Numbered from the stretch's first letter, positions 21,155-41,493 are shown. The stretch: 64,000 nt of DNA from a virus (IMGVR_UViG_3300047471_000189:14230-78229); one strand, 5' to 3'. The notes: generated by a model from the letters alone, not told the origin. Program-made: numbers and translations.

Positions 21155-21178
21155 GTATTCCTAAATTTCGGCTAGTGG

Positions 21179-22855: not shown

Positions 22856-23250
22856 TACTTATCTCCTTCTAAAAACCAAGCCAGCGGCGTGGTTGTAGTA
22901 ACTGATTGGTCTTTCAGGGCCCGCTTCAGGAATTTAACGATCTGTTGCTGGCCGAGCTTTTCCACGACACCGAAGACGCGCAACACGTTTTCGAGGGTGT
23001 CCTCGGCCTTGATTCCGGCGCGGGACTTACCTTCGATCTTGATTTGCAGGTCGAACAACCCGGCGCGAATACCAGCGAGCGAGGAAGTGAATACGCGGGT
23101 ACCGTCGTCTGTAATCTCGTTCTTGCCCGGCCTAGAGAACGACTTGACAAGGAGCGGATTACGAAGCTGGTAGCAAACGGAATCGGGGTTGGACCAACCC
23201 TTCAAACTGGCGAGCGCGTCAAACAATGCTTCTAAGCGTGTAACGGACAT
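22855..23250 (-). CDS. Hypothetical virion protein
   Basis: GGAG RBS before MSVTRLE; weak resemblance to RNNNPGN-type virion proteins. Confidence 0.55.
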   Translation of the reverse strand: MSVTRLEALFDALASLKGWSNPDSVCYQLRNPLLVKSFSRPGKNEITDDGTRVFTSSLAGIRAGLFDLQIKIEGKSRAGIKAEDTLENVLRVFGVVEKLGQQQIVKFLKRALKDQSVTTTTPLAWFLEGDK

Positions 23251-24758: not shown

Positions 24759-25130
24759 CTAAGTGGCTGGAACGAGTGAAGTAAGAATCCCATTAACGAG
24801 AGTGATGCTCCCGTTAGTTCCCCCGACCGTTAGCTTTGCTGTAACGATTGTCGTGCTGAGTCCAGTGGGGGCCGCTGTTTTTGGTGCGGCGGACAAGGGT
24901 GCTACCGGGGTAAGTCTGTATTGCGGAATCGAACCACCAGCGTAGTACTGACGAAGGTTGTCCGAAGTAGACGAAACCCCCACTACAGGGAGGGGGCAGC
25001 GCAAAGTCGTGCTGAGAACCGGAGCAGCCTCCGCCGACGTTGGGGCCGACGGAAAATGCTGCGCCGACCGCACGTAGGAACCGCCTACCGGAGAACTTGT
25101 ATCAAGTCTTGAAGCTATTGAAGGCATCAC
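24759..25130 (-). CDS. Hypothetical tail-associated protein
   Basis: Ser/Thr/Gly-rich; C-terminal GSITLVNGILT. Confidence 0.5.
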   Translation of the reverse strand: MMPSIASRLDTSSPVGGSYVRSAQHFPSAPTSAEAAPVLSTTLRCPLPVVGVSSTSDNLRQYYAGGSIPQYRLTPVAPLSAAPKTAAPTGLSTTIVTAKLTVGGTNGSITLVNGILTSLVPAT

Positions 25131-28100
25131 TTCTCCTGATCGAACCCGCCGAATAACGACAAGCTCAACAACTCATTTTTAACTGTGTCCGATCCCCAGT
25201 TCACCATGACCTGAAGGTGACGGCACTTGGCCGGTAGCTGGGTCTGAGATACATAGAACCGTTGGGCATAGGTGCTGACGCTGGGTTCGAGTTCTGTCGG
25301 GTCTTGAACGTACAAGGTGAGAGGTTCAAAGTAGCTGACCGAGGTTATGTTCACAGACAGTGCCTGACCTGTTCCTCCGGTAGTAGCCAGAGCCGTTCCT
25401 GTAGCTGGGTATCCTTCTCCGGGAAGGAGTAAGGAAAGTCCAGTTACTGGACCGGTGGGTCCTCCGGATACGCTCGTAACTTTCGCAAGCCCGCCGGTTC
25501 CTCCGGGATAAACCACGGCGACTATGTCTCCGACGGTGTATCCGGCTCCAGCGTTGTTAGGAGTTATGAAATTGATTCCGAAATACGGAGCGATTTCATC
25601 TAGCTGGATAGCAAGAGAAATTGGAGTTCCGATAGCTTTGGAGTCCGAGGTGAAGCTTTCAATCGTACCCAACTGGCCGGGCTGCGCGATAACGATGCTG
25701 CCAAGGGTGGCCCACGCCGGGTAAGCAGAACCGTTGTCCGTAGAAACCGTGTAGTCCCTCTTCAAGATCGGGCCGCTGGTCTGTGGTCCGAGCAGAAGTT
25801 CGTGCGTACCCGGAAGAACTTCGATGGATTGTACAGCGGAGAACCCGCCAACGATCTGGGCTTTGGGGCTCCATGTTGTGCCGGTTTCGGGAGACGGTGT
25901 GGGAGTCATCCTCCACCAAACTCCGTTGAAGTCCGAAACGTATAATCCCTTATCCTGTGATCCAGCGACGTGCCAAGATATAAAAGTGCTGGACGGAGTA
26001 AAGGTTCCCGTGCCGAGGCCGGGCCCAAATTGATCGCCTATTGGAAACCCGATTTCGGATACACCCGAGCTTGGGTCCAACGTGAGGACCTGATTGTCGG
26101 ATGAGTACAGGTATACGATGCTTCCGTTGACAGAAAAGGCGTCGTAGGAAACGAGCCCGATGTCTGTCAGGAACGGAGCAGAGAAGAACGCGCTTGTTGG
26201 TGTTCCTAACCCCTGAATGATGAAGATATCAGAGATCGTAAACACGAGCAGCCCGGAGGATGTTGGGAACAACCTCGTCACCGTTTCCGGGAACGCGAAT
26301 ACGTTCGACGCAGACCAAGCTTCGTTTCCATTTCCGGCGGTTACATCCGGACCGGTAGAGAAGTAGACAAGGTTGTTGACTGCTCCCCAGATTCTTCCGA
26401 GGTGGTAAGTTAATGCCAGTAGTCCGGTCGGAGGGGGGTCGTTGATTCCGTCGATAGGAGCTTCGATGAGTTCATTAAGTCCGGTATCGGGAGTAGTATC
26501 CGTGTATGTCCACGTCGCTCCGCCACCGGGGTTCGGAATTTCATCTAGGAAGAAGAGGACCGATCCACCCTGTACCGTTCTCCAGATTACAATTGTGTCG
26601 ATCTGTGTCGCAGAAGACCCGGCACCTTGGATAATGGCTAGGTTATCGGCACTGACGAGAATCGGAGCGCTTTCTTGACTTGCTGTCCCAATGTGCCCAG
26701 TAATGCTGTTTTTGTAACTGTAGGCATAGATCCACGCCCCAGTGTTTGCTTCTCCGAAAGGACCAGAGTTCAACCACAGTTCTGTGCTGTCCGTGGTGTA
26801 GGCACCAACAGCGGTAGCCCATGTCGGAGCCGTGGTTCCGCTTTCTCCGAGAATGGTGGTTTTCTCGACGGCGTTGTTAGAATCGAGAATAGCTGTGGCA
26901 AGACTTAGAGTCTGGGTGCTGCCGGGCCACGGGGATAAGGAAGGACCGCTCTGGTTTACCCACACCACTGTGTTGTCAATAGTGGTGGTCCCAACTCCGT
27001 TGGTCCAGTTCGGAAACGTGGTTCCGCTGGTTCCACCAATCGTGCATTGGAATAAGCAGTCTACCGTGACTGCTTGCTGAAAAGTTACAAAGACCGGGTT
27101 CCCAAACTCATCTGTCCCATTTTGTTCAGACGTGGTGATGTAGTAAGTGAAGGTAACCGCAAGTATGTCCCCGGCCACATAAGTATGACCCGTCAACCAT
27201 GTCCCGGGACCGATACATGACCAAGTGACGTCCCCGTCGGCAGTAGTTCCCCCGATGATGGTGTTCCAAGTAGGAGCGGAACCGCCGGTCTGGTGAGGAG
27301 CACTTCCTGTAGAGATAAGTTTCTGGAGGTTGCTGTTCGAATCCAGAATAACGAACAACGGAGCATACCACGTGCTGGCTCCCCACGCCGGGTAAACGGC
27401 AGGAGACGGGGCCTGTGTAACGGTAGGCGTTACAGTGGGAGTAGGTATTCCCCACGGTTCGACCTGTGATCCGAGGTTCTCCCATTGCGCCCCGCCGTCT
27501 TGAGTTATCGCATGAAGAACGGTCGACCACGTCGGTTGTGCGGCACCGGTAGTCCCGCTGCCCGTTGTGATCTGGCCGGTCTCTGCGGCAAACGCTTGAG
27601 TCCCGCCGTTAGCAAATTGAACCTGCTGGCTATTTGAGTTTCCTGTCGAAGTCTGAGTCGTTCCATTTAAAGCAGGAACTGTAGTTAAACCAGACAGGGT
27701 GACCTTAGTTCCAACCGGAATTTCAAGAGAAGTACCGGTCCCCAAGAAAATCGTGGCTGTTCCGGAAGCGATCTGTATGTCGGCAATGTTGCCTGTTTGG
27801 CTCCCGATGTTTAGCTGCAAATTCCCGTTGGGGTCTACGATGTACTGACCAGAGGTAAATGCCGTGTTGGCTTTCCAGATTAGTGGACTTTCTATAAGCT
27901 GGTTGGTAGACACTCCGTCCGAGAAGTAGAGAGTGTTTCCTACTCCCTGAAAGCTGGTGACCTTCGCGTCAGGGTTCTTGTTCCACAGAATCTGATTTGT
28001 GCTCGGTCCCGTTACATCTCGGACCGTGCCGCCTAATCCCGGGATAGGAGTAATAACCGCCTGCCCGGTATCCGGGCTAGTGAAGAAGTTAAAGGTCCCG

Positions 28101-28699
28101 AACTGGAACATCGCCTGATTAGCGCCGAGAGTTATCCCAGAACCAGACGGAGGGGTTGTCGGGCCGAGGACCTGTCCATTAAGGGCGGTGTAATTCGTCA
28201 GCCCGGAGAAGCTGTAGGTCTGACCAGAGACCGTTGCCGGTACGTTGGTCGAGAAGGTTACGATGGCAAAATACCGGAAGATCGGCTGATGTAACGGGGT
28301 GTATCCGATAACCAGTCTGAGACTCTCCGTGGCCGTGACTAACCGGGTGCCATGCGGAGCAGCGGTTCCTTGGACATCAGCGATAACTCTGATCTGCTCT
28401 TGGTTGTTGATGACCGGGCTGAAGGCGTAGTACCGATTGATGCCGGGGAAAGTCTGGTTGTTGTAGACAGAGGTTCCCGGTCTCCGGATGAAGGTTAGCT
28501 TCGTGGAGATTTCAGAGTTGAGACCAGAAATGGCCGTGTCTGCCCGAGACCCGTAGTACTCTGCCTCGATGTGTGGGGCATTACCACGCAGCGGGTTTCT
28601 CTGGGTAACCACACCGTCGTAGAAGGTGTCGATCCAGAGAACTCCGTAGCGGGTTGGCTTAGAGGGTTGTGCCCCTTTTTTGGCAAGCTCGTTTGGCAC
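25127..28699 (-). CDS. Tail nozzle / DNA stabilisation protein with inserted Trp-rich repeats
   Basis: Beta-rich; GRIW...NLVYFS, GLLVFT motifs of P22 gp10/T7 gp12-like proteins; synteny after adaptor. Confidence 0.65.
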   Translation of the reverse strand: MPNELAKKGAQPSKPTRYGVLWIDTFYDGVVTQRNPLRGNAPHIEAEYYGSRADTAISGLNSEISTKLTFIRRPGTSVYNNQTFPGINRYYAFSPVINNQEQIRVIADVQGTAAPHGTRLVTATESLRLVIGYTPLHQPIFRYFAIVTFSTNVPATVSGQTYSFSGLTNYTALNGQVLGPTTPPSGSGITLGANQAMFQFGTFNFFTSPDTGQAVITPIPGLGGTVRDVTGPSTNQILWNKNPDAKVTSFQGVGNTLYFSDGVSTNQLIESPLIWKANTAFTSGQYIVDPNGNLQLNIGSQTGNIADIQIASGTATIFLGTGTSLEIPVGTKVTLSGLTTVPALNGTTQTSTGNSNSQQVQFANGGTQAFAAETGQITTGSGTTGAAQPTWSTVLHAITQDGGAQWENLGSQVEPWGIPTPTVTPTVTQAPSPAVYPAWGASTWYAPLFVILDSNSNLQKLISTGSAPHQTGGSAPTWNTIIGGTTADGDVTWSCIGPGTWLTGHTYVAGDILAVTFTYYITTSEQNGTDEFGNPVFVTFQQAVTVDCLFQCTIGGTSGTTFPNWTNGVGTTTIDNTVVWVNQSGPSLSPWPGSTQTLSLATAILDSNNAVEKTTILGESGTTAPTWATAVGAYTTDSTELWLNSGPFGEANTGAWIYAYSYKNSITGHIGTASQESAPILVSADNLAIIQGAGSSATQIDTIVIWRTVQGGSVLFFLDEIPNPGGGATWTYTDTTPDTGLNELIEAPIDGINDPPPTGLLALTYHLGRIWGAVNNLVYFSTGPDVTAGNGNEAWSASNVFAFPETVTRLFPTSSGLLVFTISDIFIIQGLGTPTSAFFSAPFLTDIGLVSYDAFSVNGSIVYLYSSDNQVLTLDPSSGVSEIGFPIGDQFGPGLGTGTFTPSSTFISWHVAGSQDKGLYVSDFNGVWWRMTPTPSPETGTTWSPKAQIVGGFSAVQSIEVLPGTHELLLGPQTSGPILKRDYTVSTDNGSAYPAWATLGSIVIAQPGQLGTIESFTSDSKAIGTPISLAIQLDEIAPYFGINFITPNNAGAGYTVGDIVAVVYPGGTGGLAKVTSVSGGPTGPVTGLSLLLPGEGYPATGTALATTGGTGQALSVNITSVSYFEPLTLYVQDPTELEPSVSTYAQRFYVSQTQLPAKCRHLQVMVNWGSDTVKNELLSLSLFGGFDQEK

Positions 28700-28715: not shown

Positions 28716-29807
28716 TTATCCGTTGAAGGGCCCGGGTCCGTAAGGCCACGCGGCCCCGATACCTTGCCAGTTAGCTGTCCAGCTTCCGTCGATACCCATT
28801 GCTCCGCGTTCCGGAGTCATGCGAAATTCTTCCTGCTGCCGGTCGGCACCACGGACGGATTTCATGAGTTGTTCTTCCCACTCTAGGTAAGACGCCTGTG
28901 CGTCCTTGGCTCCGTTGAAAGCCTTGAGCGCGGCCCGGCAGCCCTGCCGGAAAGTAAAGAACATGCTCTGTGGGATCGGGTCCAGAGACTGCTGTAGCGT
29001 AGCCACAACAGGGGGAAGCATTTGATACCGAGGAACAATCCACCAGCAGAGGCCGTTCAGAGCCGGGACAGGGGATAGCCGGAACCCATAACCGTTGGGG
29101 TCGGCAACTGTCCAGATTACGGTGTTGTCCTGAATTCTAGTTCCCGGGGTAGATTGTGGGGGAGCGGCTGGCTCGGTAGCCCCAGAGATACCGTAAGGAG
29201 AAAATCCGGGCGGTATGATCGTGGTCCCTGTGTACCCCGGAGACTCGATAGTCAAACCCAGTTGGGTCGAGTCAAGGAACAGAATGTTTCCGTTCACGTC
29301 GATAAACTGTTGTATAGGGGTCCGAGGAGTCATCGACACACCGTACCCACTGGAGTATTCGGTGTTCGGCTGCCACTGTCCCATGATTGCAAAGTTATTC
29401 TGGATGAAGCAGATTTGGAGAGGGACGCTTTGTGCCGATACCTGCGGAATGTCTCTGACGGTTTCTACGACGAACGTCGGCTTTGGGGCCCCATTGTTAT
29501 TGGACGTAGAGTTGTTGATGTCGACCCGCCACGCATCCTCCAACCACCCTATGTCTGTGAGGTTAGTGACATAATCCTGCTGCAAGCTGGACGTGAGAAA
29601 CGGTGGAGCAACTTTCCGGTTCCACTTCCACGGCATGTTCTCATCGAGAACCCGTTGCATCACCTCGTTCACAATGGTGAGCATCGGCTCAGTGCTGTAT
29701 CCAGCAGCACCTCCGAGAACATTATAGAATTCCGGATTGGCCTTTAGCTGGTTCGCGATCTGCTGACCAGTTAAGGAGTAAGCGTGATTTCCGGGGATTA
29801 AAGGCAT
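28716..29807 (-). CDS. Head-tail adaptor-like protein
   Basis: VNEVMQ...PWKWNR...QQDY; RLSPVP; paralogous pattern to 40780-41493. Confidence 0.55.
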   Translation of the reverse strand: MPLIPGNHAYSLTGQQIANQLKANPEFYNVLGGAAGYSTEPMLTIVNEVMQRVLDENMPWKWNRKVAPPFLTSSLQQDYVTNLTDIGWLEDAWRVDINNSTSNNNGAPKPTFVVETVRDIPQVSAQSVPLQICFIQNNFAIMGQWQPNTEYSSGYGVSMTPRTPIQQFIDVNGNILFLDSTQLGLTIESPGYTGTTIIPPGFSPYGISGATEPAAPPQSTPGTRIQDNTVIWTVADPNGYGFRLSPVPALNGLCWWIVPRYQMLPPVVATLQQSLDPIPQSMFFTFRQGCRAALKAFNGAKDAQASYLEWEEQLMKSVRGADRQQEEFRMTPERGAMGIDGSWTANWQGIGAAWPYGPGPFNG

Positions 29808-29816
29808 GAAGTCTCC

Positions 29817-29831
29817 GTCCGAATAATGGAC
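29817..29831. repeat. Dispersed 15-bp motif copy
   Basis: GTCCGAATAATGGAC, intergenic. Confidence 0.85.
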
Positions 29832-29834: not shown

Positions 29835-31085
29835 TTAGTTAGAGGCCCAGCAGGTCGTCGCGAGTGCCGCTATAGTGCGACCAGCGTCTTGTCGGCTATC
29901 AATGTTATAGGAAAAAGTGGTGGTCGTTTGTGCGCTGATGTTAATCGCAAACCCACCCCGGTTCCCGATAGTTCCTCCGCCAGACCAAGTTCCTACCTGA
30001 CACCACATGTAGTAAGTAGCGGGAAGTGTAGCTCCCCATGCTTGGGTAGCTTCGCATCCTTCTCCAGCGTTTCCGTCATCGACTACCGTGCAGGAAGTGA
30101 AAGTAACTTTCCCTATAATCGTAGTGGTAGGTCCTGTAGGGTAAGTAATCGCAACAGCGGTCTGGGCAGTTGTGCGACCCTTACCGTCGGTAGTTACCTG
30201 ACACACATGGGTAGCATCTCCGCACGATCCCGGTGACCCGTTCACTGTGTTGAGGGTAAGGGGCTGCACTCCTCCGCCGCTTGGAGTAGTTGCGTCTCCG
30301 CCGCCGTTGATCTGTGTGATTCCGGCAGACGCCGACCCGCAGTTAGCTGCTCCTGACACCGCGATTCCTGTAGCGAATTGTCCACCCGGGCATTGTGCCG
30401 GAGTGGTGGCTAGAGCCGTAGCGGTTGCTGCGAGAGTGGCTGTGCCTGCGTTTCCTGAAGTGTTCGCGGCGTTGTCCGGGATGTCTGCACTTACTAACCC
30501 ACGGATAGCAAGAGCCGCCGACCCTCCGGATGCTGGCCCGGCCAGTACCGTGTTTGCCGCAGCGGAAGACCCGGCTAAAATATTCGTCCAAGCTCCGGGG
30601 GCGGTTTGTGCTCCGGTTCCACCTTGGAGAATAGTAGCGAAATTCTCTCCACTTATGGTAGTTCCACCGGCTGCATAATACGCAAGTTGACCGGTAGTTC
30701 CGGGGTTGATTAACCCGGTTGTGGTGCTACTGACGACACAGACATTCGGAATCACTATCCCGCCCGCGCTCGGGTAGGAGATGGTTTCCGTTACGCAGTA
30801 CCCCAACGGGATGTAGTAGTCGTAGTTACCGCCTTCGTCTGCGGTCACGACGGACGGGATAATCGGGGCTGTTAATAACGGGTCCGAGTATATCGTGGCT
30901 GCCATATCGGTCGCGGTGGAGGTGACGGCAACTGTTGAGTACGGTTGAATCACAGCTTCCACCCCGGACGACCCGCGAGCTAAGACCTGTCCGACACGGT
31001 GATACCCGATGGTAACCTGACCATCGCTGTGTGCAGCGATAGCCAAGGCCATCAGTGTGCCGGAAATTATATGAACTAATTTCAT
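29835..31085 (-). CDS. Tail-fibre-like protein with signal-peptide-like N-terminus
   Basis: ATIYSDPLLT..VTADEGGNY head-binding-like domain shared with 36846-40778; QGGTGAQTA fibre motif. Confidence 0.6.
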   Translation of the reverse strand: MKLVHIISGTLMALAIAAHSDGQVTIGYHRVGQVLARGSSGVEAVIQPYSTVAVTSTATDMAATIYSDPLLTAPIIPSVVTADEGGNYDYYIPLGYCVTETISYPSAGGIVIPNVCVVSSTTTGLINPGTTGQLAYYAAGGTTISGENFATILQGGTGAQTAPGAWTNILAGSSAAANTVLAGPASGGSAALAIRGLVSADIPDNAANTSGNAGTATLAATATALATTPAQCPGGQFATGIAVSGAANCGSASAGITQINGGGDATTPSGGGVQPLTLNTVNGSPGSCGDATHVCQVTTDGKGRTTAQTAVAITYPTGPTTTIIGKVTFTSCTVVDDGNAGEGCEATQAWGATLPATYYMWCQVGTWSGGGTIGNRGGFAINISAQTTTTFSYNIDSRQDAGRTIAALATTCWASN

Positions 31086-31094
31086 CCTAACTCC

Positions 31095-34000
31095 TTATCG
31101 CAAAACCGAACCTTTGAAGTGTCCACCGTGTCCCTTAGAACCGTGGGTTGTCGGGTTCGTCACAGTGAGTCCAGTTGAACCGGATACACTTGACGAGGTA
31201 GCCATGATCGTCGTGCTACCTGCCAGAACGCCTGTGGCTAATCCCCCTGCCGAGATCGTGGCGATGCTTGTGAAGGTGCTGGACCACGTAACAGTTGATG
31301 TGCAATTTGTTGTGGTCGAATCGGACCAGTGGCAAGTTGCGGTGTACTGCTTCGTCGACCCCACAACAACCGAGGTACCGGCTGGGGTCACGACGATGCT
31401 GGTTAGGGTCGGCGGGATATTGATCGTATACAACGAACTTCCCACAGAGCTATTCGTAAACCCTGACGCAGAGGCTATCGCCTTGACTGTCTGGGTCGTC
31501 GAGACGGTGAGAGGGGAAGAGTAGACCGTCGATCCTGTTGTTGGGGTCGATCCGTTGGTTGTGTAATAAATGGTAGATGCAGGCGTGGTATCGGAGAGCG
31601 CCACTGTCTGGGTAGACGTGTACGTTCCGGCGTTCGGGCTGGTCACTGGCGTAGCGACAACCGGAGCGTTGATTGTATAGGCTGCGCTGCCTGCGGTGGA
31701 ATCTTGGAATCCTGTTCCGCCAGCGACAGCATACAGAGTTTCACTGGCCGCAACGGAAACAGGTGCGGTGTATTTGGTACCGGTTGTACAGCCGGTTGCT
31801 CCATCAGTTGCCGGAGACCCGGTCGTGTTGTAGCAGATTACAGATCCCGACGTAGTCGAGATCGTTACCGTCTGTGTTCCGGTGTAGGTTCCCGCAACAG
31901 GAGAGAAGGTTGGGGTAACTGCTATTGGGGCCGTGGAGGCCGTGAAAGACGCCTGATCGAGATTGATAAAATACGTCTGTGAACCGCTTGGCGTATTCGC
32001 GTCCATCTGAAACTGGAAGCCGTTACCCGACGTCCACCCCATTGGAAGCACGCCTGAGTTCGTCGTGATCCCGAGGTTATGCACGGTCCCGTTCAAAACG
32101 AACGTGTCGTACACCTGACTATTTCCTACCCTGTGATCGGTAGTTGTGATGTGGTTCCACCCTATTAACGGTGCCTGCGTCACACCTGAGTCAATCCACT
32201 GTATTGTGGCCTGATCCCATGCGTCCCACGAATTATGGCCACCCGGACATCCTGCGCCGTTGTAGCAGTACTGCCAGCCGAACATGTACTCCCGATTCAA
32301 ACCGACCGAGAACAGGAAGGCAGTGTCTAACTCCAAGGCACCAAGATTCGAAGTGGAAGGAAGATATACTTCAAAATCGGATGCAAAGTTTGTGCAAAGG
32401 TCGCAAACTGGAGCGAGCCAGTAGAATAGAACATTGGTGTCTGGTTGGTTTGCGACCATACTCATTTGCATGGACGACCCAGACAAGGAGGGTGAAGCGT
32501 TTCTGATAGTCTGATTGGTTGAGACGGGGATTCCTGTTCCCCCGGGATCGCATCCCGGTTTGATGCAGGTGTTCCAGCCAGTAAGTGAATTCCACAAGCC
32601 GGGCAAGTTAATCGTGTAAGCGGCACTTCCGACAGAGCTAGTCACAAACCCGGCTGCGGTAGCGATAGCCTTCACTGTGGTGTTGGAATTCAGGGTGATT
32701 GCTCCCGAATAGACAGTTGACCCGGTCGTGGGGGTTGAGCCGTCCAGAGTGTAGTAGATTGTCGAGCTTGGGGTTGTATCAGAGATTGTTACTGTCTGAA
32801 TGCTCGTGTAGGTTCCAGCAGTCGGGGAGAAGGTCGGAGTTGCAACAGTCGGAGTGGAGTTATCTACTGCTCCAATGATGCCTCCGGTCGAACTGGTCAC
32901 TACTGTGGATCTGGCCGTAGCGTAGTGCGTGTTCGCGTTGAATTGAAAACGCACCGGCATGTTCGCCGCACCACCGCTCAGCCCAGTACCGCTCTGCGGG
33001 GAAACCGGCACATAAGTTCCCGTGGTAAATGGCTGGCTTGCGGTCGATATGAAGTTGCCCGAGGATAACCCTGTTATGTGATTATTGATTGGCGTGACTG
33101 AGGTAAAGAGGGGAAGATCACTCCTTGTGCTTTCCCACCCGCTGTTCAGATTGCAGGCGCTTGATGGAGAGATCGGCGTCGTGATATTCATCAAAGAGCC
33201 AGCCGCAACGACGTTGGTTGTGAAATCACTAACGAACGTCTCAGTACTATTCCAGCAGGCGCTTGTTCCCGGTGTTTGCCAGATAATATTATTCTGCGCC
33301 ATGACGCGGGGGTACTCGAAGGGAGTCCCGCCGCCATTGTCGTTCGTGTCCAGAATCCCCGAACCAAGAAACGTGCCGGTGAAGCTCAATGTGTTGTTGT
33401 AGAAGTAGAGATTGCCGGGACGTGCTGCTCCGTAGGGACCGTGATCGCCTATAAAGTGGACCCCGAAAAGAGCGGTTGAGTTCTGGATGATGTTGCCATA
33501 GATATGATAGGTGTGAAACTGATCGTACCAAGCGGTCATCAGGTCCATCGTCATGATGTTGCCCTGCGCCCATCCATTAGGGATGTAGTTGTACGCTCCC
33601 ATATATTGCGGGGAATCTTGGTTATCTACGGCATCGATCACTCGCTGCGGACTGTTCGGGGTTCCTCCGGCACCATCGCCAAAATAGTTGTACCGAACGA
33701 TTGTCCCTACGCCTCGATCCTTTAGATTGATTCCTCCAGAGTTGAAAAGCATCTTGTCGATGACGTTGAATTGGACAAGCTGCAACCAGCCTTGCAGGTA
33801 GAACTGATGGATGCTTCCGTTGCCGCTGACGCCGGTTCCGTGGACGTGGTTACCTTCATAATCGGTGTTCTGAACCAGCGCCCAGCCGTTATTGGTATTG
33901 AAGTCGGAGAAGATTCCAAAGTCGCTGTTTGAAACATCGTTCCCACGGATGACCGTATCCATACTGGGCCACACGCGAAGCCCGGATGTTGCCAGCGCCC

Positions 34001-36047
34001 AATTCGCTACCGTCCCACCCGGGGCCGTGTGACTCACAGAGGATGAGGCATTCTTGATCGCCAATCCTTCAAGGATCAAATACTGCGGTCCTGTCCACGG
34101 TCCGGGAGCATAGTTGCCCCACCAGTTTGTTGAGTAATTTCCGCCAACCGATACCGCCGCATATTGCTCAATTGTGTAAGCAAAGGATGTGCTGATGGCT
34201 GGAGTAGCGTTTTGGCCGTCAATGACCGGAAGGTTTCCCGCAGAATCAGGAACACCGCAAACACGAATTGGCTGTGTTCTGGTTCCGGTTCCGCTGAACG
34301 GGAAGTATTCGTGATAGGTGGTCGGACTCGACCCGCTTAAATCTTCATTGTGAATGCGGACTGTAGAACCGGCGGTGAGCGCGGTCCACGGAACGGACGT
34401 AATAGTATGATAAGTCGCTTGCGTCGGTCCTACGTCATAGACAGTTCCTGTTGAACTTGGGTCGGCGGTGCAGTCCACCGGCATTGTCTGCGAGGGTGTT
34501 ACCGGATACGGGAGAGCGTGGCCTGTAACATAAAGAGTAGCCGTCTGAGTCTTGGTTCCGTCAGCCACACTCGTCGCCAATACCGTATAGCGACCAGCAA
34601 CCGTAGCGGAGAACACCGTATCTCTGTTTGTAATATCGCTGAGAATACCGTCCCCTCCCCCCGGCTGCGAAGTGATTGCCCAAGTCACGGCTTGGTTACT
34701 ATTACCGAGAACCCATGTCTGTAAGTCGACTTTTTGGTTAGCGTACAGGGCTTCATAGAACGGGGTTACAATTACCTGAGTGCTTGGCTGACACACATCG
34801 ATTGGAAAATCTACAGTCTTGCTTGTATCGTCCACGCTCTGTGCCCTGATCGTCACAATGGCAGTAGAGGTTGCCGTATAGGTGACGTTGCCGCTGCCAG
34901 AGCCGGGAGATACGGAACAGGTTCCCGGCGTCGAGCCAACGGTGACATCCACCCACGGAAAGGTATTTGCCGTAGCGGACAATGTGGCGGAGGCTCCGCC
35001 TGTTGTCGAGGCTACACTCCAGTTCACCTTATTGGTCGTTCCGTTGGTGATCGTCGCGTAGATACGCCGCACATCACCCGGAAGAACCTGCCAGCCATAT
35101 TGGGATTGGTTCGCAGTGATAGCAACGGCTGGGGGAGGGGTTCCCTGCGTATACGACCACGAGTTAATAAGCACCGCACCGGCATTGCCTGCCGAGACGG
35201 TAGAAGCAGTGATGCCTGCGAGGGCTGTATTACTTCCGCCTACGATGGACGGGATGTTGACTCCTGTCCAAGTATGGGTAAAGCAGGAAGGTCCCGGACA
35301 TGTCCCGCCAGCCGTCACGTCGAACAGGTTCTCAATAAGATTCGATCCGTCATAGGTGATCGTTACCGAGTAGACGTGGCCGGTGGTTGTGTTGAACTGA
35401 GTAGCTGGGGAGTTCAGCGGAACGGGATTAGTAACAAAGCTAGCGTAAGACCGATAACCGGGGTCGCCATCATTTGGGTGGCATGGATCATAGCCAGACG
35501 TATAGAGGTTAGTCGTGCTGTAGGTAAATCCGTTGGCAAAGGGACCGTTGGCAACCGGGTCCACGTTGTTGAACCCGTCCATCGTTATGGCAAAGACGTT
35601 GTTCAGGTAAGTACCGGATAGGGTCACGTTCGGAGCCTGATAGAACCCGCCTTCGCAGCCAGCGCCGTTGAAGAACCCGATCCCCTGATAGCCGGGTTGA
35701 TTGTTGGTGTTCTGGAGCACGAAGGCCAGCGTATTACCGCTGGGAATGAAGGTGTAGGTTGTCGAGAATGCCTGCACGTTGACCGGGGTCGTGAAGTTGG
35801 CAGACATTGCAGTGTGAGAACTATGCGCGGGTGCTAACTGCACTTGGCCTGAGCCGGTAATGCTGGTGGTGGTAGTACTGTTGAGCTTGAAGTTGTTCGC
35901 GCCCAGCGTGTTGTTGCTGCCTGATGCCCCGCAGGTGCCAGCACCTGAATTGAACGCGGAACAGTTAAAGATAGTCTGTCCGTGGCTATGAGCAGCGATT
36001 GCTAAAGCAAGAAGGCCGCCAGAAAGAATGCGAATGATTTTCATCAT
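31095..36047 (-). CDS. Large secreted-type adhesin/depolymerase: lectin-like, Ig-like, beta-helix, 3 chitobiase/Fn3-associated repeats, Big_2
   Basis: Three [AV]TP..SP.AGTYT..QTV..S repeats; C-terminal SIVVTP...QYTAT...VTWSS; Asn-rich beta-helix region. Confidence 0.7.
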   Translation of the reverse strand: MMKIIRILSGGLLALAIAAHSHGQTIFNCSAFNSGAGTCGASGSNNTLGANNFKLNSTTTTSITGSGQVQLAPAHSSHTAMSANFTTPVNVQAFSTTYTFIPSGNTLAFVLQNTNNQPGYQGIGFFNGAGCEGGFYQAPNVTLSGTYLNNVFAITMDGFNNVDPVANGPFANGFTYSTTNLYTSGYDPCHPNDGDPGYRSYASFVTNPVPLNSPATQFNTTTGHVYSVTITYDGSNLIENLFDVTAGGTCPGPSCFTHTWTGVNIPSIVGGSNTALAGITASTVSAGNAGAVLINSWSYTQGTPPPAVAITANQSQYGWQVLPGDVRRIYATITNGTTNKVNWSVASTTGGASATLSATANTFPWVDVTVGSTPGTCSVSPGSGSGNVTYTATSTAIVTIRAQSVDDTSKTVDFPIDVCQPSTQVIVTPFYEALYANQKVDLQTWVLGNSNQAVTWAITSQPGGGDGILSDITNRDTVFSATVAGRYTVLATSVADGTKTQTATLYVTGHALPYPVTPSQTMPVDCTADPSSTGTVYDVGPTQATYHTITSVPWTALTAGSTVRIHNEDLSGSSPTTYHEYFPFSGTGTRTQPIRVCGVPDSAGNLPVIDGQNATPAISTSFAYTIEQYAAVSVGGNYSTNWWGNYAPGPWTGPQYLILEGLAIKNASSSVSHTAPGGTVANWALATSGLRVWPSMDTVIRGNDVSNSDFGIFSDFNTNNGWALVQNTDYEGNHVHGTGVSGNGSIHQFYLQGWLQLVQFNVIDKMLFNSGGINLKDRGVGTIVRYNYFGDGAGGTPNSPQRVIDAVDNQDSPQYMGAYNYIPNGWAQGNIMTMDLMTAWYDQFHTYHIYGNIIQNSTALFGVHFIGDHGPYGAARPGNLYFYNNTLSFTGTFLGSGILDTNDNGGGTPFEYPRVMAQNNIIWQTPGTSACWNSTETFVSDFTTNVVAAGSLMNITTPISPSSACNLNSGWESTRSDLPLFTSVTPINNHITGLSSGNFISTASQPFTTGTYVPVSPQSGTGLSGGAANMPVRFQFNANTHYATARSTVVTSSTGGIIGAVDNSTPTVATPTFSPTAGTYTSIQTVTISDTTPSSTIYYTLDGSTPTTGSTVYSGAITLNSNTTVKAIATAAGFVTSSVGSAAYTINLPGLWNSLTGWNTCIKPGCDPGGTGIPVSTNQTIRNASPSLSGSSMQMSMVANQPDTNVLFYWLAPVCDLCTNFASDFEVYLPSTSNLGALELDTAFLFSVGLNREYMFGWQYCYNGAGCPGGHNSWDAWDQATIQWIDSGVTQAPLIGWNHITTTDHRVGNSQVYDTFVLNGTVHNLGITTNSGVLPMGWTSGNGFQFQMDANTPSGSQTYFINLDQASFTASTAPIAVTPTFSPVAGTYTGTQTVTISTTSGSVICYNTTGSPATDGATGCTTGTKYTAPVSVAASETLYAVAGGTGFQDSTAGSAAYTINAPVVATPVTSPNAGTYTSTQTVALSDTTPASTIYYTTNGSTPTTGSTVYSSPLTVSTTQTVKAIASASGFTNSSVGSSLYTINIPPTLTSIVVTPAGTSVVVGSTKQYTATCHWSDSTTTNCTSTVTWSSTFTSIATISAGGLATGVLAGSTTIMATSSSVSGSTGLTVTNPTTHGSKGHGGHFKGSVLR

Positions 36048-36051
36048 GCTC

Positions 36052-36846
36052 CTAAGAGATTCCGTACTTGGTTCGGAAGTACGCTTCGTTCTGTTGTACC
36101 TGTGGGAGGGTGAGGGCCGACTGGTAGACGATCAACTCCACAAATTTGCCAGCAAATAAGGCAGTACCAGTAGCGTTACCATCTCCGCCAATAACAGTAG
36201 GGCCACCAATTAGACCGCCACCGGCAGCGGACGTACTAACATCCACCGCACTTGCCATTCGAAAGTTAGTAGAAGTGCTCTGTATCCATGTAACGTTGGT
36301 CTGCGTAAACGTGTTTGCTGTGGCATGAGTCACACCTACGGCTACTAGATGGTCATCTTGTCCGGAATAACTATTGAAATTGAGATCTGTTGCCTCACCG
36401 AATGCCGGACCCAAATAGCCGGAGCCAATCACATACCCCGATGAGGTACTAGGTGGAATGCTAAAGACAAAGAATACTGTCTGCTGACTTATACAGCACC
36501 CGCTCGGAGGAACTGTAAAAGCCAACGCCCCCCAGCAACTACTAAAGGTGACGGCTGGCAGGCCGTTCACTTGGTTGGTGTTGAATGTGCAAGTGCCGTG
36601 ATTCAGGGTGGCATCGTTGGCGTTGCCGCTTCTATCAGCCCAAGCAGTGATGTTAGTACCGTTGCTCGGGGTCCCGCATACGCTGCTGGGATATGTGATG
36701 CAATCAGAAGATAACCATAGAGCCATCCCGGCCACTGGGCCTGAAGCGGCAGCGGTAACCGTGCGGTGATTTCCGGTACTGATAACCTGCCCGCCGTTGG
36801 CAGCGAGCAGAGGAATAAGAGCGAGGAGCACTAGTAATTTCTTCAT
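36052..36846 (-). CDS. LamG/concanavalin-like protein with signal peptide
   Basis: LWL....WADRSGNANDA, NGLPAVTF, ELIVY..AL....Q..E.YF..KYG; start MKKLLVLL at 36846. Confidence 0.7.
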   Translation of the reverse strand: MKKLLVLLALIPLLAANGGQVISTGNHRTVTAAASGPVAGMALWLSSDCITYPSSVCGTPSNGTNITAWADRSGNANDATLNHGTCTFNTNQVNGLPAVTFSSCWGALAFTVPPSGCCISQQTVFFVFSIPPSTSSGYVIGSGYLGPAFGEATDLNFNSYSGQDDHLVAVGVTHATANTFTQTNVTWIQSTSTNFRMASAVDVSTSAAGGGLIGGPTVIGGDGNATGTALFAGKFVELIVYQSALTLPQVQQNEAYFRTKYGIS

Positions 36847-39800
36847 TAGTATGTTCCCTGAACAACCCAAGTTGCTTGCTTCGAGGTTCCGTCTGCGACG
36901 AAAGTAAATTTGATATAATCTCCATTCGTCAACGCTACATTTCCGCTCTGTGACGCTGTAGCGAATGAACTTGTACAAGTTACTGCGCCCGTCAGAAGTG
37001 CCCCAAGCGTGTTCCCTGCCGCGTTCATCGTCGAGGTTCCAGAGTTGTCGGTGAAGCATTGCAGACCAGTGAGTGTAACCGTCGACCCGGTTGTGTTCTT
37101 ACAGGTCGACTGGAGATAGGTTCCCGCTGTGATTGCGTTCAAGCCGTCACCAAGACCCGGCTGGCAAGACCATTGACGTGTTCCGCCCACTACAGCCGCA
37201 TCGACATAAGCTGTCGTCGCAACCTTAGTGGAGTTATCCGCCGGAGATTGAGTCGTTGCCGTCGTTCCGTTAGGGATTGCGTTTGTGCCGCTAACAGCAG
37301 TCCCGGTTCCAGCGTAATAAGCTATCTGGTTTGCTGTTCCGCTATTGACGGTACCGCTTCCACCTCCGCCTGTGCATCCGATATTCGTCAAGCCACCGTG
37401 AGTTCCGTTAAAACAGGCAGGGTTTGGGCTTGCGGAGGTCGCAATACTCGGGATCGTAAACTCGCCGCTAGCATAAGCTCGAAACACATCGGTAGACCCA
37501 CCATACGGACGAACCATATAGTAGTTGTTGGTAGACGTCGAACTCGTGTAATTGAAGCCGTGACAGAAGGCGTTGTTGTTTCCTGTATCCCGCCCAAGGC
37601 AATCCCCGAACCAGTCACCAGATGCTAGGGTAGAATTCCACTCTCGGATTAGCGTTGGTGGTCCGCCTGTTGTTGAATGCGAGTAAATGTCCATGCCAAG
37701 GAACCCGCCCGCGTTCGCTTGCCACGCCATGAAATTAAACCAGTTGGAATCGAACCATAATCTCGCAGCCGGAGCGTATACGCTCTGAACATCGGCACCG
37801 AGGCCGCTTGCTGAATACGAGAAGGTATCCGCAGGTTGGATCGGTAGCCCTCCCTTAGCAGCGAAAGCTTCGTTAACCGTTTGCGCCCAAATTACATCTG
37901 CATGGGGGTCCGGTAGCGATGGGGTGTTATCTGCGACATGCAGTAGAGCCCTAGCCGTGTCCGCGTAATAGTCGATGTACTGACCGTTCGACACCATCGT
38001 CGCGTTCTTGCCCATGTACTGGGTCCACATGAAGTAGTTCACTTGACCGGGCTTAACGTCTGCTCCGGTGAGGCCGTACTGGGCAGGAACGATGGTCGTT
38101 TCTAACACCTTCATTCCAGCCGTATGAGCCGCAGCCCAGAGTGTCTGCTTGTCGGCCTCTACTTGAGTTGAGCTTCTTCCGCCAAGAAAGTCGTTCTGGC
38201 CGGTCTGATCGATCAGGAACATGGGTGACGCGCTGATGCTGGCAACCCAAGTTGCCAGATTTGCTGCGGCAGCCTGAGTGGTTGTTTCAAACCCGTAGAT
38301 AGTCCCGTGACCGTAAATATAAGATTGCTTTCCAAACTGCCATATACCCCACAACGATGCGTCGTAGGTAGTGCCGGTGCAAGGGGAGCAAGTGTAGGTT
38401 AAAGTGGTCGGGGTCGTGAAAGTAATCTGTGTTGACGAAGGGACGGTGGTGACTTGGAAAGATCCATACTGGGCAGCCTGCTGAACTGATCCGATGATAC
38501 CGGCGGGCCAACTAGCCAAATTGGACATATCGACTGCATCCCCTATGGACAGACTATGTGCAGAACCGTAGGTGACGGTGCAGGTTGAAGTGGAGGTATG
38601 AACGCAACTTACGCTGGACGGAACACCAAGCGAACGACTGTTCTGTGCGTTTGCATCGTCGTAAAGCCCAGAGAATGACGTAACCACATAAGCCGTTGTA
38701 ATCGGGTTGTACTGAACTCCGCTTGATCCTCCTGCGGTGGTAAGATCGATGTCATTTGTGGTTGTGCTGACCGTGACGCTTGCGTCAGATGAATGAATTG
38801 TGACTGCTGGTCCGGTCTGGGAATTGATGCTTGTAATGCCGCCTCCGCCTCCTCCACCAAACGGGGCTTCTGCTACTCCGTTTTCTGAGTGAACGAGTTG
38901 GTGCGTAACCGCATCGCAGCGGATGTAATCGACCCCAGCAGCCGGAACTCCGGCAGTAGAGGATTCATCACAAGAAAATCCGTGGGCCCCTGAAGGGAGA
39001 GCGGCGTCTGCGGCTGGCGATACCGTGCCTGCTGTTAGAGAAGGCGCTGTGACAGCTTCAGAACACGCAACGGTTGTGCCGTTGTCGGTGCAGGCCGAAG
39101 CGGCGTGGCTCCCTGCCGTAGACCCAACCATCTGCATCTGACCAGCGGTCCCGACCGTGGGACTACCGCTTCCTCCACTCCCGTACGGCACCCAAGCGGT
39201 TCCATTACTCTGGCAAAGATGAGATGTGGACCCGGTGCCTGCTGCGCAATCCAAGGCGTCAACGGCGTTATCGACGGCGATAATTGCGTACGGCCATGAG
39301 GTAGCGGGAGGAAGTTCCTGAATCCATCTTGACTGCAATCCCTTGCCCCAGAAGTTCGCGTTCGGATCAATCGAAAGCCCCTCGGTCGCGCTATATAAGA
39401 GCGGGACATTGACCGGAATGAAGCCGGGAGATGAAACAGGAGATCCTGTGTAATAGAGGAACAACCTCACGCCATTAACGGTGGTATCGCTTGCTCCCCT
39501 GAAGTCGCCTGACATGGCAATCGATGTGAGAACCTGTGTTGTATCGACGTTGGCTCCTGTCAGACTGACCAGTTGGCCGGTGGCCGGTACGGATTCAAAC
39601 TCTTCTGAGGAGATGGGGAATAAACTTCCGCCCGTTGCTCCGGTGGCCGTTGCCGTTGCGCTGAAAGCCGCGACGTTATAGGTAGACGCGCTTAAACAGC
39701 CATCAGCTACGGGCAAGATACCGTGATTGGCACCAACCGCAGCAGCATAAACCGCCGTGATTCTACCGGGAGAGGCTGCTAGATCGGGATACTGGGCTTC

Positions 39801-40778
39801 GAGCGCCCCCGTAAAGGTCCATGTCGCGGTACCGCTAGAGCCGAAGGAGCAATACGACCCAGATGCCATATCCGCAGAAGTCAAGTCACCCGTCACGGTG
39901 ACAGCGGGAGCATCAGTCTTCGAGAATCCTGTCGGGGTAAGAATGACGTACTGACCGGAAATAGGGGGCTGGATGAACTGTCCTATCCCGCTGGTAACAT
40001 CTACGTCGGCAGTTTCAATTCCTCCGCTGGGGTTTCGGAACCGAACGGTGGGGCTGTCCTGAAAATCAAGTAAAACCTGACTGGTGTTGTCAATCTCGTC
40101 CGTCTGTAAGTTCACACTTGGGTTGGCCGAGATGACCCCAGCAACGCAATTCGTGGTCGTGCCGTCACACTGCGCGGCTCCCTTGGACGAATTGGTCGCA
40201 TTGGGAACAGTCGCTGATTCGATTCCCCCACTGGGGTTCGTGAACTTAACCGTAGCCGTATCTTTGAAGTTGAGGATGGTTTGTAGAGCGTTATCGACAT
40301 CGTTGGTTTGAATCTCTGCGCCGGTAGTGTTAGAAAACGTACAAGTGTTTCCTGTGCAACTTACATTTGCCCCAGTGAAAGTAAACGGACCGGAAACAGA
40401 GTTTATGCTGGAAACGATAGCTCCTCCGGCTCCGGCCAGAGAGCATATGTTAATAGTCGTAAAGTTCCCTGATCCCGGGTATTGGACACGCTCGTTTACG
40501 CAGTATCCCAAGGGCATGTAATACGAGAAGTTACCGCTGGAGTCAGCCGTCACCATTCCCGTGGGGATCGGAATAGTCAGAAGAGGGTCCCGGTAGATGG
40601 TAGCCAACGCACCGGTAGCCGTCGACGTAACATAGATGTTCGCGTTGGGGACAACTACAGCCTCTGTCCCGGACGAACCACGGGCCACGACTTGGTTTAC
40701 CCGGTGAAACCCGATGGTCACTTGTCCGAATAATGGACCAGCTATAAGAAGAAGTGCGGATAGAAGAAATTTCTTCAC
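36846..40778 (-). CDS. Tail fibre/spike-like protein with SGNH-hydrolase-like domain and signal-peptide-like N-terminus
   Basis: Head-binding-like N-domain; duplicated QT...DN..Q..L.F.D...V.F.NPSGGIE; GQND block; ADNSTKVATTAYVD fibre motif. Confidence 0.65.
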   Translation of the reverse strand: MKKFLLSALLLIAGPLFGQVTIGFHRVNQVVARGSSGTEAVVVPNANIYVTSTATGALATIYRDPLLTIPIPTGMVTADSSGNFSYYMPLGYCVNERVQYPGSGNFTTINICSLAGAGGAIVSSINSVSGPFTFTGANVSCTGNTCTFSNTTGAEIQTNDVDNALQTILNFKDTATVKFTNPSGGIESATVPNATNSSKGAAQCDGTTTNCVAGVISANPSVNLQTDEIDNTSQVLLDFQDSPTVRFRNPSGGIETADVDVTSGIGQFIQPPISGQYVILTPTGFSKTDAPAVTVTGDLTSADMASGSYCSFGSSGTATWTFTGALEAQYPDLAASPGRITAVYAAAVGANHGILPVADGCLSASTYNVAAFSATATATGATGGSLFPISSEEFESVPATGQLVSLTGANVDTTQVLTSIAMSGDFRGASDTTVNGVRLFLYYTGSPVSSPGFIPVNVPLLYSATEGLSIDPNANFWGKGLQSRWIQELPPATSWPYAIIAVDNAVDALDCAAGTGSTSHLCQSNGTAWVPYGSGGSGSPTVGTAGQMQMVGSTAGSHAASACTDNGTTVACSEAVTAPSLTAGTVSPAADAALPSGAHGFSCDESSTAGVPAAGVDYIRCDAVTHQLVHSENGVAEAPFGGGGGGGITSINSQTGPAVTIHSSDASVTVSTTTNDIDLTTAGGSSGVQYNPITTAYVVTSFSGLYDDANAQNSRSLGVPSSVSCVHTSTSTCTVTYGSAHSLSIGDAVDMSNLASWPAGIIGSVQQAAQYGSFQVTTVPSSTQITFTTPTTLTYTCSPCTGTTYDASLWGIWQFGKQSYIYGHGTIYGFETTTQAAAANLATWVASISASPMFLIDQTGQNDFLGGRSSTQVEADKQTLWAAAHTAGMKVLETTIVPAQYGLTGADVKPGQVNYFMWTQYMGKNATMVSNGQYIDYYADTARALLHVADNTPSLPDPHADVIWAQTVNEAFAAKGGLPIQPADTFSYSASGLGADVQSVYAPAARLWFDSNWFNFMAWQANAGGFLGMDIYSHSTTGGPPTLIREWNSTLASGDWFGDCLGRDTGNNNAFCHGFNYTSSTSTNNYYMVRPYGGSTDVFRAYASGEFTIPSIATSASPNPACFNGTHGGLTNIGCTGGGGSGTVNSGTANQIAYYAGTGTAVSGTNAIPNGTTATTQSPADNSTKVATTAYVDAAVVGGTRQWSCQPGLGDGLNAITAGTYLQSTCKNTTGSTVTLTGLQCFTDNSGTSTMNAAGNTLGALLTGAVTCTSSFATASQSGNVALTNGDYIKFTFVADGTSKQATWVVQGTY
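40724..40738. repeat. Dispersed 15-bp motif copy
   Basis: GTCCGAATAATGGAC, encodes GPLFG of the signal peptide. Confidence 0.85.
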
Positions 40779-40779: not shown

Positions 40780-41493
40780 TTAACCTCTGCCTCCCTGAAT
40801 GGCGGCTAGTTGTCGGAGAGAATTCAGTTTGTCGGCGAGCCAAACATTCTTTTGGGACTGGCTCAAGCCCTGAGATTCCGTTGCCAAATCAGTCATGAAT
40901 ATCTGCATTGATGTCGTAAACCGGGGGTCGTTGCTGTACTCGAACGCTTTCGCTTGGAACCCCTCGTTATACAGGTAGCTTAGATAATCCGGAATCGGGT
41001 TCCATGTCTGGTTAAGAGCAGTGAACAACGGAGCCGACTTCTGATAATCAACCACAACGTTGTAAATTTTGTCCGGAGCGGGAAAAACCCGGAAGGTTAT
41101 GTTCCCCGAGTCGTCATCGTATTGGGCTGAAATTCTGGCTGGTTGATTGGGTAGGGGTTCTTCGCCTTTGATTAACTCGACCTGTAACTCAAACGCAGCA
41201 AACCCGTCCCCGGGGAGGTAGGCCACAGCCTTCTCAATCCAACCAAACGTAGGCAGGTTGACGATGTAATCCGAAACCCCGATGTCGGTCGTAAACGTAG
41301 GAGTAGACGGTGTGGCCCCCACGCGGTTCCATCTCCACCCGCCTAAAGCAGGAGACAAGATCGTCTGCATCACCCAGTCGGCGTTGGAAAACGCCGGGTC
41401 GTTCGCAGTATTAGCCGTGAACGTCAAGGGGGCGAGACGCTGGTATTGCTGGGCCAAGTTAATGGTCCGCTGTAACTGGATTGTGCTTGCCAT
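40780..41493 (-). CDS. Head-tail adaptor-like protein
   Basis: WRWNR, SDY, FRVFPAPD, IPDY pattern. Confidence 0.55.
   Translation of the reverse strand: MASTIQLQRTINLAQQYQRLAPLTFTANTANDPAFSNADWVMQTILSPALGGWRWNRVGATPSTPTFTTDIGVSDYIVNLPTFGWIEKAVAYLPGDGFAAFELQVELIKGEEPLPNQPARISAQYDDDSGNITFRVFPAPDKIYNVVVDYQKSAPLFTALNQTWNPIPDYLSYLYNEGFQAKAFEYSNDPRFTTSMQIFMTDLATESQGLSQSQKNVWLADKLNSLRQLAAIQGGRG

Follow-up and report, generated by a model that had tools for sequence, protein, structure and literature searches.

A 64,000-bp stretch of viral DNA (IMGVR_UViG_3300047471_000189:14230-78229), in the following called the window and numbered from its first base, carries a cassette of four consecutive minus-strand genes in its tail module, here named A to D, each of which is predicted to start with a Sec-type signal peptide that is cut in front of a glutamine (Gln) residue. 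The window comprises bases 14230-78229 of a single contig of 78,229 bp that lacks a terminal repeat. A sequence-only reading of the locus had quoted four signal-type N-termini ending in GQ, and these are present on the minus strand exactly as quoted. It had also described the flanking genes as adaptor-like, a description that has held up: the 237-residue protein encoded upstream gives a weak match to Pfam SU10_adaptor (E = 3e-4, under Pfam's curated cut-off) and is 31% identical to gp13 ("tail protein") of Tunturiibacter phage Tunturi_3, while the 363-residue protein encoded at the other end, a paralog of the former, is 30% identical to Tunturi_3 gp12 ("structural protein"). The 1190-residue tail protein encoded next to it is a homolog of Tunturi_3 gp19 (44% identity over 493 residues). 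A fifth gene with a signal peptide lies elsewhere in the window; it was missed by the sequence-only reading, as it is located outside the range considered there. The genes and domains in question are the following, with a slash marking the predicted cut site.

40780..41493, minus strand: adaptor-like gene, 237 residues, directly upstream of the cassette; no signal peptide, no cysteine (Cys)
36846..40778, minus strand: gene A, 1310 residues; predicted signal peptide of residues 1-18 (40725-40778), cut G/Q; 26 Cys, closely paired
40443-40724, minus strand: N-terminal domain (N-domain) of A, about residues 19-112, putatively tail-binding and of the P22/Pan3 type
36052..36846, minus strand: gene B, 264 residues; predicted signal peptide of residues 1-19 (36790-36846), cut G/Q; 6 Cys
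31095..36047, minus strand: gene C, 1650 residues; predicted signal peptide of residues 1-23 (35979-36047), cut G/Q; 22 Cys
29835..31085, minus strand: gene D, 416 residues; predicted signal peptide of residues 1-22 (31020-31085), cut G/Q; 10 Cys
30738-31019, minus strand: N-domain of D, residues 23-116, putatively tail-binding, with conserved Cys97 and Cys116; followed by fibre-like repeats
28716..29807, minus strand: second adaptor-like gene, 363 residues, closing the cassette; no signal peptide
25127..28699, minus strand: gene for a large conserved tail protein, 1190 residues; no signal peptide, 4 Cys
61358..62431, minus strand: fifth gene with a predicted signal peptide, 357 residues; cut ALG/Q; 6 Cys

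The N-termini read MKKFLLSALLLIAGPLFG/Q in A, MKKLLVLLALIPLLAANGG/Q in B, MMKIIRILSGGLLALAIAAHSHG/Q in C, MKLVHIISGTLMALAIAAHSDG/Q in D and MKKLLALPILLGLSIIQTALG/Q in the fifth protein. Gene A starts with GTG one base past the stop codon of the upstream adaptor-like gene and has GGAGG/GAGG ahead of it. The ATG of gene B overlaps the stop codon of gene A as TAATG, pointing at translational coupling; a longer open reading frame (ORF) of 335 residues that is listed mechanically at this place overlaps gene A and is not the gene. AGGAG is present upstream of the start of gene C and AAGGAG six bases ahead of the ATG of gene D. Starts downstream of the hydrophobic segments, a possibility that the sequence-only reading had raised against itself, are excluded for D and its family because GTT follows the Gln codon in gene D and the homologs share no conserved internal Met.

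All five proteins begin with MK, MKK or MMK followed by a hydrophobic stretch. Position -1 of the predicted cut site is Gly throughout and position -3 is Leu, Asn, Ser, Ser and Ala, respectively, the Asn of B being atypical; neither an RR motif nor a Cys at position +1 occurs in any of them. Our rule-based scan flagged 9 of the 76 ORFs of the genome. The frame of gene B lies outside the greedy ORF set used in the scan and its signal peptide was read by eye, while the other four pass. Convincing signal peptides amount to five in the whole genome, four of them adjacent and all five with Gln at +1, and because of this the clustering is, as judged from sequence, more than chance. The mature parts of C and D bear no relation to each other, yet their signal peptides (35979-36047 and 31020-31085) are about 70% identical, which suggests that signal peptides are exchanged as modules.

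Comparison with homologs strengthens the assignment. In 17 of 17 metagenomic homologs of D a hydrophobic N-terminus is present, its sequence varies and the Gln is invariant; the invariant columns of this alignment are 22-23, with Gln among them. The same arrangement of an invariant Gln behind a variable signal peptide is found in all 15 related viral loci that we analyzed. A profile built from the mature domain alone, and thus without signal information, was searched against 1.84 billion cluster representatives and retrieved 225 of them. The classification that follows covers the best 150 of these 225, a diverged set with more than 50% sequence difference between clusters. The domain is preceded by a signal peptide and begins at residue 16-28 in almost all of the 150, and about 140 have retained a signal peptide of variable sequence. 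All 92 representatives that could be parsed by pattern have Gln as their first mature residue, preceded at -1 by Gly (50), Ser (20) or Ala (16); a further 51 were not parsed and, inspected by eye, belong nearly all to a second subfamily with a signal peptide followed by QGAHR. The 16 homologs of gene B all have a hydrophobic, signal-like start, Gln at the junction in nearly all cases and two invariant Cys. As a variable leader is combined with a fixed junction of a small residue and Gln, we read the junction as a signal peptidase I site and not as an anchor or a chance hydrophobic stretch. Retention of the signal peptide in about 140 of 150 representatives and invariance of Gln wherever it could be parsed thus indicate that the proposed export signals are genuine.

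The Cys content points in the same direction. The sequence-only reading had suggested oxidative folding on account of paired Cys, and the counts in A, B, C, D and the fifth protein (26, 6, 22, 10 and 6) are indeed all even, with many Cys in close pairs. Cys makes up 1.8% of the residues of the five signal-bearing proteins versus 0.5% in the other late proteins (p = 7e-13); Cys is lacking altogether in the 3286-residue protein encoded in the same arm, in the major head protein and in the adaptor, and occurs once in the portal. The N-domain has a conserved pair, Cys97 and Cys116 in D. Among the 140 signal-bearing forms of the family, both Cys are present in 128, neither in 11 and one in 1, whereas among the nine signal-less forms both are present in none, neither in eight and one in a single case (P0112, an N-terminal fragment). 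The association of the pair with the signal peptide (128/140 vs 0/9) is significant at p = 3.8e-9. The idea that the signal-less forms make up a separate lineage was abandoned when a scan with their alignment placed them on the same viral contigs. In eight related loci (L001, L002, L005-L008, L011 and L013) a short signal-less paralog of the domain (about 100-175 residues; examples are L011:9437-9973, L008:9643-9990, L005:9599-9940 and L013:1778-2338) is encoded directly upstream of the long, signal-bearing and Cys-rich gene. These short paralogs have at most two Cys and lack the conserved pair, with YNVTE and NIV replacing YCVTE and NIC. A short copy of this kind is also present in loci L124, L131, L146 and L147, the pairing with a long gene being established for the eight loci above. 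The signal-less fibres of Tunturi_3 are likewise Cys-poor (1 Cys in 493 residues and 7 in 826). It is our strongest argument that paralogs within one genome have the Cys pair only together with the signal peptide, which suggests that an oxidising compartment is the place of folding for the signal-bearing copies. Taken from sequence comparison, export via Sec, cleavage in front of Gln and disulfide formation in the periplasm are therefore very probable.

Immediately behind the Gln, A and D share a stretch of 103 residues with 59% identity, in line with the domain that the sequence-only reading had seen to follow the signal in two of the genes and had likened to tailspike head-binding domains. 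The AlphaFold2 model of this N-domain is a beta-sandwich with a predicted local distance difference test score (pLDDT) of about 90 over residues 44-120, while the segment that immediately follows the Gln, though highly conserved, shows no structure in the monomer. With this model, Foldseek ranks the tail complexes of the cyanopodophages Pan3 and Pam1 first. In VIA-align the Pan3 chain 9vyg_m (Z 7.9), Pam1 7eeq_A (Z 7.7) and Sf6 gp14 (Z 6.6) lead, and several entries for the P22 gp9 head-binding domain reach Z 5.6-5.9, so that the proposed comparison with P22 gives a match, at a moderate score below those of Pan3, Pam1 and Sf6. The top eleven rows are all N-domains of Pan3, Pam1, Sf6 and P22 tailspikes (Z 7.9 to 5.4) and rank above generic transthyretin-like sandwiches. 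Searched against 177,635 sequences of solved structures, the N-domain profile matched only three Pan3 "Tail spike protein" chains, at borderline E values of 0.046-0.098; this profile match is an independent pointer to the same proteins as the fold search. In one homolog the C-terminal end is formed by the Pfam tail-fibre domain PF21882. Together, model and profile point to a tail-binding N-domain of the podophage-tailspike type in A and D. The phage of the window encodes no signal-less copy of this domain. A scan with the signal-less homolog P0126 matched only Gly-rich repeats and the N-domain was found in none of those loci. Pfam gave no match for the bodies of A and D or the N-terminal 330 residues of C, and an SGNH esterase that had been guessed for gene A was dropped for this reason; phmmer of A and of the 1190-residue tail protein against solved structures likewise gave no match.

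Gene B encodes a protein whose model (pLDDT 76, predicted template modelling score 0.76) shows a concanavalin-A-like/LamG lectin fold, a jelly-roll beta-sandwich, in the mature part. Its best fold match is the Pan3 tailspike chain 9vyh_p at Z 19.1, a lead that is a tie within 1 Z of many lectin-type domains at Z 17-18, and the fold match says nothing on function. The protein also matches PHROG 10356 ("virion structural protein", E = 7e-9). In the relatives the fibre gene is followed by small genes with signal peptides, to which gene B shows no recognisable homology. Gene C encodes three CHB_HEX_C/Fn3_assoc modules and a C-terminal Big_2 domain.

The window makes up most of a 78-kb, podovirus-like genome and probably stems from a soil phage of Acidobacteriota, most likely of Acidobacteriaceae. 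The plus strand carries the genes of the first 10.7 kb or so and the minus strand those beyond; the minus-strand arm encodes the large terminase, the portal and the major head protein as identified via PHROGs. Among 50,697 phage records, the best match of the portal is that of Tunturi_3 (34% identity over 84% of the protein). Tunturi_3 (PP885686) is a cultured podovirus with a host from the Acidobacteriaceae (PMC11924767). Homologs of its terminase, portal, head protein, adaptor-like paralogs gp12 and gp13 and the 1136-residue gp19 are present in the same order. The cassette is located between the homologs of gp13 and of gp12/gp19 and therefore in the slot that is taken by the signal-less fibre genes gp14-18 in Tunturi_3; these fibres have no homolog in the phage of the window. 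Genomes of Acidobacteriaceae, Bryobacteraceae and other Terriglobia encode proteins with repeat modules common to gene D. The closeness to Tunturi_3, the occurrence of these repeat modules in Terriglobia and the use of Shine-Dalgarno sites by the genes led us to propose an Acidobacteriaceae host. A tblastn search with gene D against the 50,697 phage records gave no match, and genome contigs scanned with the N-domain alignment yielded no relative.

Another cultured podovirus of Acidobacteriaceae, the Tunturiibacter phage Tunturi_1 (PP887698; host Tunturiibacter psychrotolerans X5P2), with its morphology established by electron microscopy (PMC11924767), displays this arrangement as well. Following the gene for the "tail protein" gp11, five genes in the region 10371-23028 (L075) start with predicted signal peptides, and the junction is Ala/Gln in four of the five.

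gp12: 1190 residues; ...AASA/QTAAY; 20 Cys
gp13: 675 residues; ...GFA/QTTG; 10 Cys
gp14, "tail spike protein": 919 residues; 21 Cys, including one within the predicted signal peptide
gp16: 149 residues; ...ANA/QWM
gp17, "virion structural protein": 1184 residues; ...AGA/QTCT; 32 Cys

The four large ones contain 10-32 Cys. A run of signal-bearing, Cys-rich tail-module genes is thus common to Tunturi_1 and the window, in contrast to Tunturi_3 with its signal-less and Cys-poor fibres. Signal peptides are not mentioned in the paper describing these phages (PMC11924767). The profile for the P22-type N-domain does not match within the first 50 kb of either Tunturi_1 or Tunturi_3.

Among solved structures, the models of A and D resemble P22 gp9 (1lkt, 8u10), Sf6 gp14 (7ukj, 7sg7), Pam1 (7eeq_A) and Pan3 (9vyg chains m, n and o) in combining a small N-terminal beta-sandwich with a long modular spike or fibre. 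Several paralogs with the N-domain in one phage are a trait in common with Pan3, and exchangeable C-terminal parts are a further point of resemblance. These known tailspikes have no signal peptide, and the P22 tailspike folds and docks in the cytoplasm. The proteins studied here differ from those of P22, Sf6, Pam1 and Pan3 in that a predicted cleavable signal precedes the N-domain, that the first residue is an invariant Gln and that a Cys pair is conserved. Phage proteins that use the host Sec system are well established and include the filamentous-phage coat proteins pIII and pVIII, signal-arrest-release (SAR) endolysins and spanins. Filamentous phages are alike in having virion proteins with N-terminal export signals that are active in or beyond the inner membrane but differ by assembling through extrusion across the envelope. 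The exported proteins known from tailed phages are lysis or exclusion factors and not receptor-binding virion proteins, and a literature search for exported tail fibres or tailspikes found no description.

The Gln at +1 deserves separate consideration. A Q-rule, i.e. Gln as the first residue after the signal peptide, has been described as exclusive to Bacteroidetes (PMC5837995, PMC10653852), and phages of Porphyromonas gingivalis copy it in proteins whose function is unknown (PMC10367356). The parallel to the cassette consists in signal peptidase I substrates with Gln in first position and in phage proteins that copy an export signature of the host; the difference is that the host lineage of the window is Acidobacteriaceae and that the P. 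gingivalis phage proteins are not tailspikes. A Bacteroidetes host, at which the Q-rule might hint, was dropped in favor of Acidobacteriaceae in view of the Tunturi_3 match, the shared repeat modules and the Tunturi_1 cassette. We looked at signal-like N-termini in 800 kb taken at fixed intervals from one Acidobacteriaceae genome (G001; loci L026-L045 and L051-L070) and in 400 kb of Escherichia coli K-12, with a scoring that ignored the +1 residue apart from penalising Pro; the outcome is a heuristic estimate for one genome. Under a strict filter, Gln was at +1 in 29 of 65 signal-like N-termini from Acidobacteriaceae vs 2 of 20 from E. coli (p = 0.007), and the raw counts were 45 of 178 vs 8 of 89 (p = 0.002). 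A smaller and under-powered sample (400 kb vs 200 kb of E. coli) had given 20 of 86 vs 6 of 46. Gln is by far the commonest first residue in the Acidobacteriaceae genome, with no enrichment of Asp, Glu, Lys, Arg, Asn and His at +1. The junction itself is mostly Ala/Gln in the host and Gly/Gln in the phage. These counts suggest that the phage proteins follow a habit of the host, and a Gln-first export rule might extend from Bacteroidetes to Acidobacteriaceae. It is conceivable that the mature N-termini are blocked, as the exposed Gln may cyclise to pyroglutamate. Type II glutaminyl cyclases belong to the broad M28 family.

Part of the signal-coding region is marked by a further element. A 15-bp quasi-palindrome, GTCC-N7-GGAC, is present in 21 copies in the window versus 0.3 expected, and three copies are located at or near signal-bearing genes.

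40724..40738, minus strand: copy GTCCATTATTCGGAC within the stretch of gene A that codes for the signal peptide; specifies G-P-L-F-G plus the first base of the Gln codon
62379-62393: copy in the signal-peptide coding part of the fifth gene, in a different reading frame
29817..29831, minus strand: copy directly after the stop codon of gene D

The motif occupies the same place in the fibre gene of 10 of the 15 related loci (L001, L002, L005, L007, L008 and L011-L015), which explains why CPLFG or CPLSG recurs ahead of the Gln in homologs (general form (C or G)-P-(L or F)-(F, S or Y)-G). The placement of the element thus imposes a constraint at the DNA level on part of the signal peptide. It might serve in regulation or mark the junction of modules.

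Some observations concern neighboring genes. The fifth signal-peptide gene is surrounded by genes for small membrane proteins and lies upstream of the terminase gene; it has a signal-bearing homolog in the related locus L009, and its product matches neither Pfam nor PHROG entries. The 3286-residue protein (11294-21154, minus strand) matches a PHROG annotated as endolysin with residues 1959-2157 and is, because of this match, probably an internal or ejection protein. A gene for a Ro60-like RNA-binding protein (47606-48931; PHROG 850, E = 4e-50) resides within the arm for virion genes. On an Acidobacteriaceae chromosome, L016 (9986-17924) encodes three consecutive signal-bearing proteins of 536, about 1014 and about 1088 residues, the first with the repeat modules of gene D and the other two with fn3 domains. 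The trio is part of a glycosyltransferase/methyltransferase locus, has no phage genes nearby and is not a prophage. It suggests exchange between surface proteins of the host and phage fibres.

How could such proteins become part of a particle? In textbook morphogenesis, tailed phages are assembled wholly in the cytoplasm. For the phage studied here we propose that each cassette protein would be synthesised behind a cleavable Sec signal peptide and passed into the periplasm, where host signal peptidase I would cut in front of the invariant Gln, which may then cyclise to pyroglutamate, and where the mature proteins would fold and acquire disulfide bonds. Head, portal, adaptor and nozzle-like proteins, which have no signal peptide and almost no Cys, would meanwhile assemble in the cytoplasm. 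The periplasmic spikes would dock on the spike-less particles once the holin breaches the inner membrane at lysis. The lectin-fold protein B, coupled to A, and the carbohydrate-enzyme-like protein C would either ride on A or D or act free in the periplasm. The course of events to which we incline is attachment of A and D to particles still without spikes, at the moment when the inner membrane is opened by the holin, because both have the conserved tail-binding domain, occupy the fibre slot and represent the only copies of this domain in the genome. P22 tailspikes bind spontaneously to spike-less heads in vitro and such late docking is therefore physically plausible. With a similar leaning we regard the cassette as the receptor-binding set, i.e. 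tailspikes, fibres and lectin-like partners, of a podovirus with Acidobacteriaceae as its probable hosts, which would acquire its spikes at lysis.

Several points weigh against this proposal. The signal peptides were called by our own rule-based scan and by comparative evidence and not by SignalP. Fold similarity of the N-domain to solved tailspikes is moderate (Z 5.9-7.9 for the best ones), and at E about 0.05 its profile match to Pan3 is a borderline one. The Cys pair is missing from eleven family members that do have the signal. Regarding pyroglutamate, a search for a type I glutaminyl cyclase (PF05096) gave no match in the one Acidobacteriaceae genome covered. C is devoid of the anchor domain and has the look of a common secreted carbohydrate-active protein of bacteria. 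In most relatives a short, signal-less version of this domain is encoded as well; it could take up the tail sites inside the cytoplasm, so that the exported copies would serve another purpose. The last two points would be accommodated if the exported proteins were not virion parts at all but periplasmic or secreted enzymes and lectins that strip or modify envelope polysaccharides of the host. They would thereby block superinfection or free the progeny from the thick exopolysaccharide of Acidobacteria, and particles of the relatives would carry only the short signal-less stub. B as a lone lectin-fold protein would fit in, as would the signal-bearing chromosomal proteins of Acidobacteriaceae that have gene-D repeat modules and are encoded in a glycosyltransferase locus outside any prophage. 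Nevertheless, we consider this main rival explanation unlikely: there is no obvious reason for A and D to keep a strongly conserved tail-binding domain if they never met a tail, and the phage of the window, which has neither a signal-less copy of the domain nor homologs of the Tunturi_3 fibres, would be left spike-less although the cassette sits in the fibre slot of the structural operon.

Another possibility is that the hydrophobic segments, which are long enough to span a membrane, remain uncleaved and serve as signal-anchors, a notion to which the atypical Asn at -3 in the c-region of B would be congenial. Spikes would then be held on the periplasmic face of the inner membrane, where particles could collect them, or be displayed on the infected cell, whose surface would be remodelled. 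The invariant Gln and the Gly, Ser or Ala at -1 in 86 of 92 parsed representatives are the signature of signal peptidase I, and the most conserved part of the proteins, directly after the Gln, fits a free N-terminus that contacts a partner; we accordingly think that anchoring is very unlikely. Less credible still is that the signals are inherited baggage, neutral or weakly used, on a cassette that was captured from genes for secreted host proteins and whose products assemble in the cytoplasm. Modules in common with chromosomal proteins of the host lineage speak for capture, the near-identical signals on the unrelated mature parts of C and D indicate that signal peptides move by recombination, and the repeated 15-bp element in the signal-coding region could drive such exchange. 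Neutral baggage, however, would be expected to decay, while the signal has been kept in some 140 clusters more than 50% diverged even as its own sequence drifts. Moreover, the Cys pair co-varies with the signal, and paralogs in the same genomes have neither the one nor the other. Export followed by docking at lysis hence remains the explanation that we favor for A and D.

On a broader scale, the observations can be read as two-compartment assembly in some tailed phages, with a core built in the cytoplasm and all receptor-binding proteins exported, starting with Gln or pyroglutamate, disulfide-bonded and added at lysis, together with a Gln-first rule that reaches Acidobacteriaceae; we see this comprehensive reading as evenly poised between right and wrong. 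That Gln is enriched at +1 in one genome from Acidobacteriaceae calls into doubt the restriction of the Q-rule to Bacteroidetes. Annotation pipelines should not dismiss signal-bearing proteins as non-structural and, should the proposal be true, expression in the periplasm may be required for producing spikes or depolymerases of such phages in recombinant form. The cultured phage Tunturi_1 with the same cassette arrangement offers a laboratory system for a direct test. If export and late docking do take place, spike enzymes could act on the host envelope from inside before release, virion proteins could have disulfides and blocked N-termini, an advantage in soil that is acidic and rich in proteases, and the last step of assembly would be tied to lysis in a whole lineage of soil phages.

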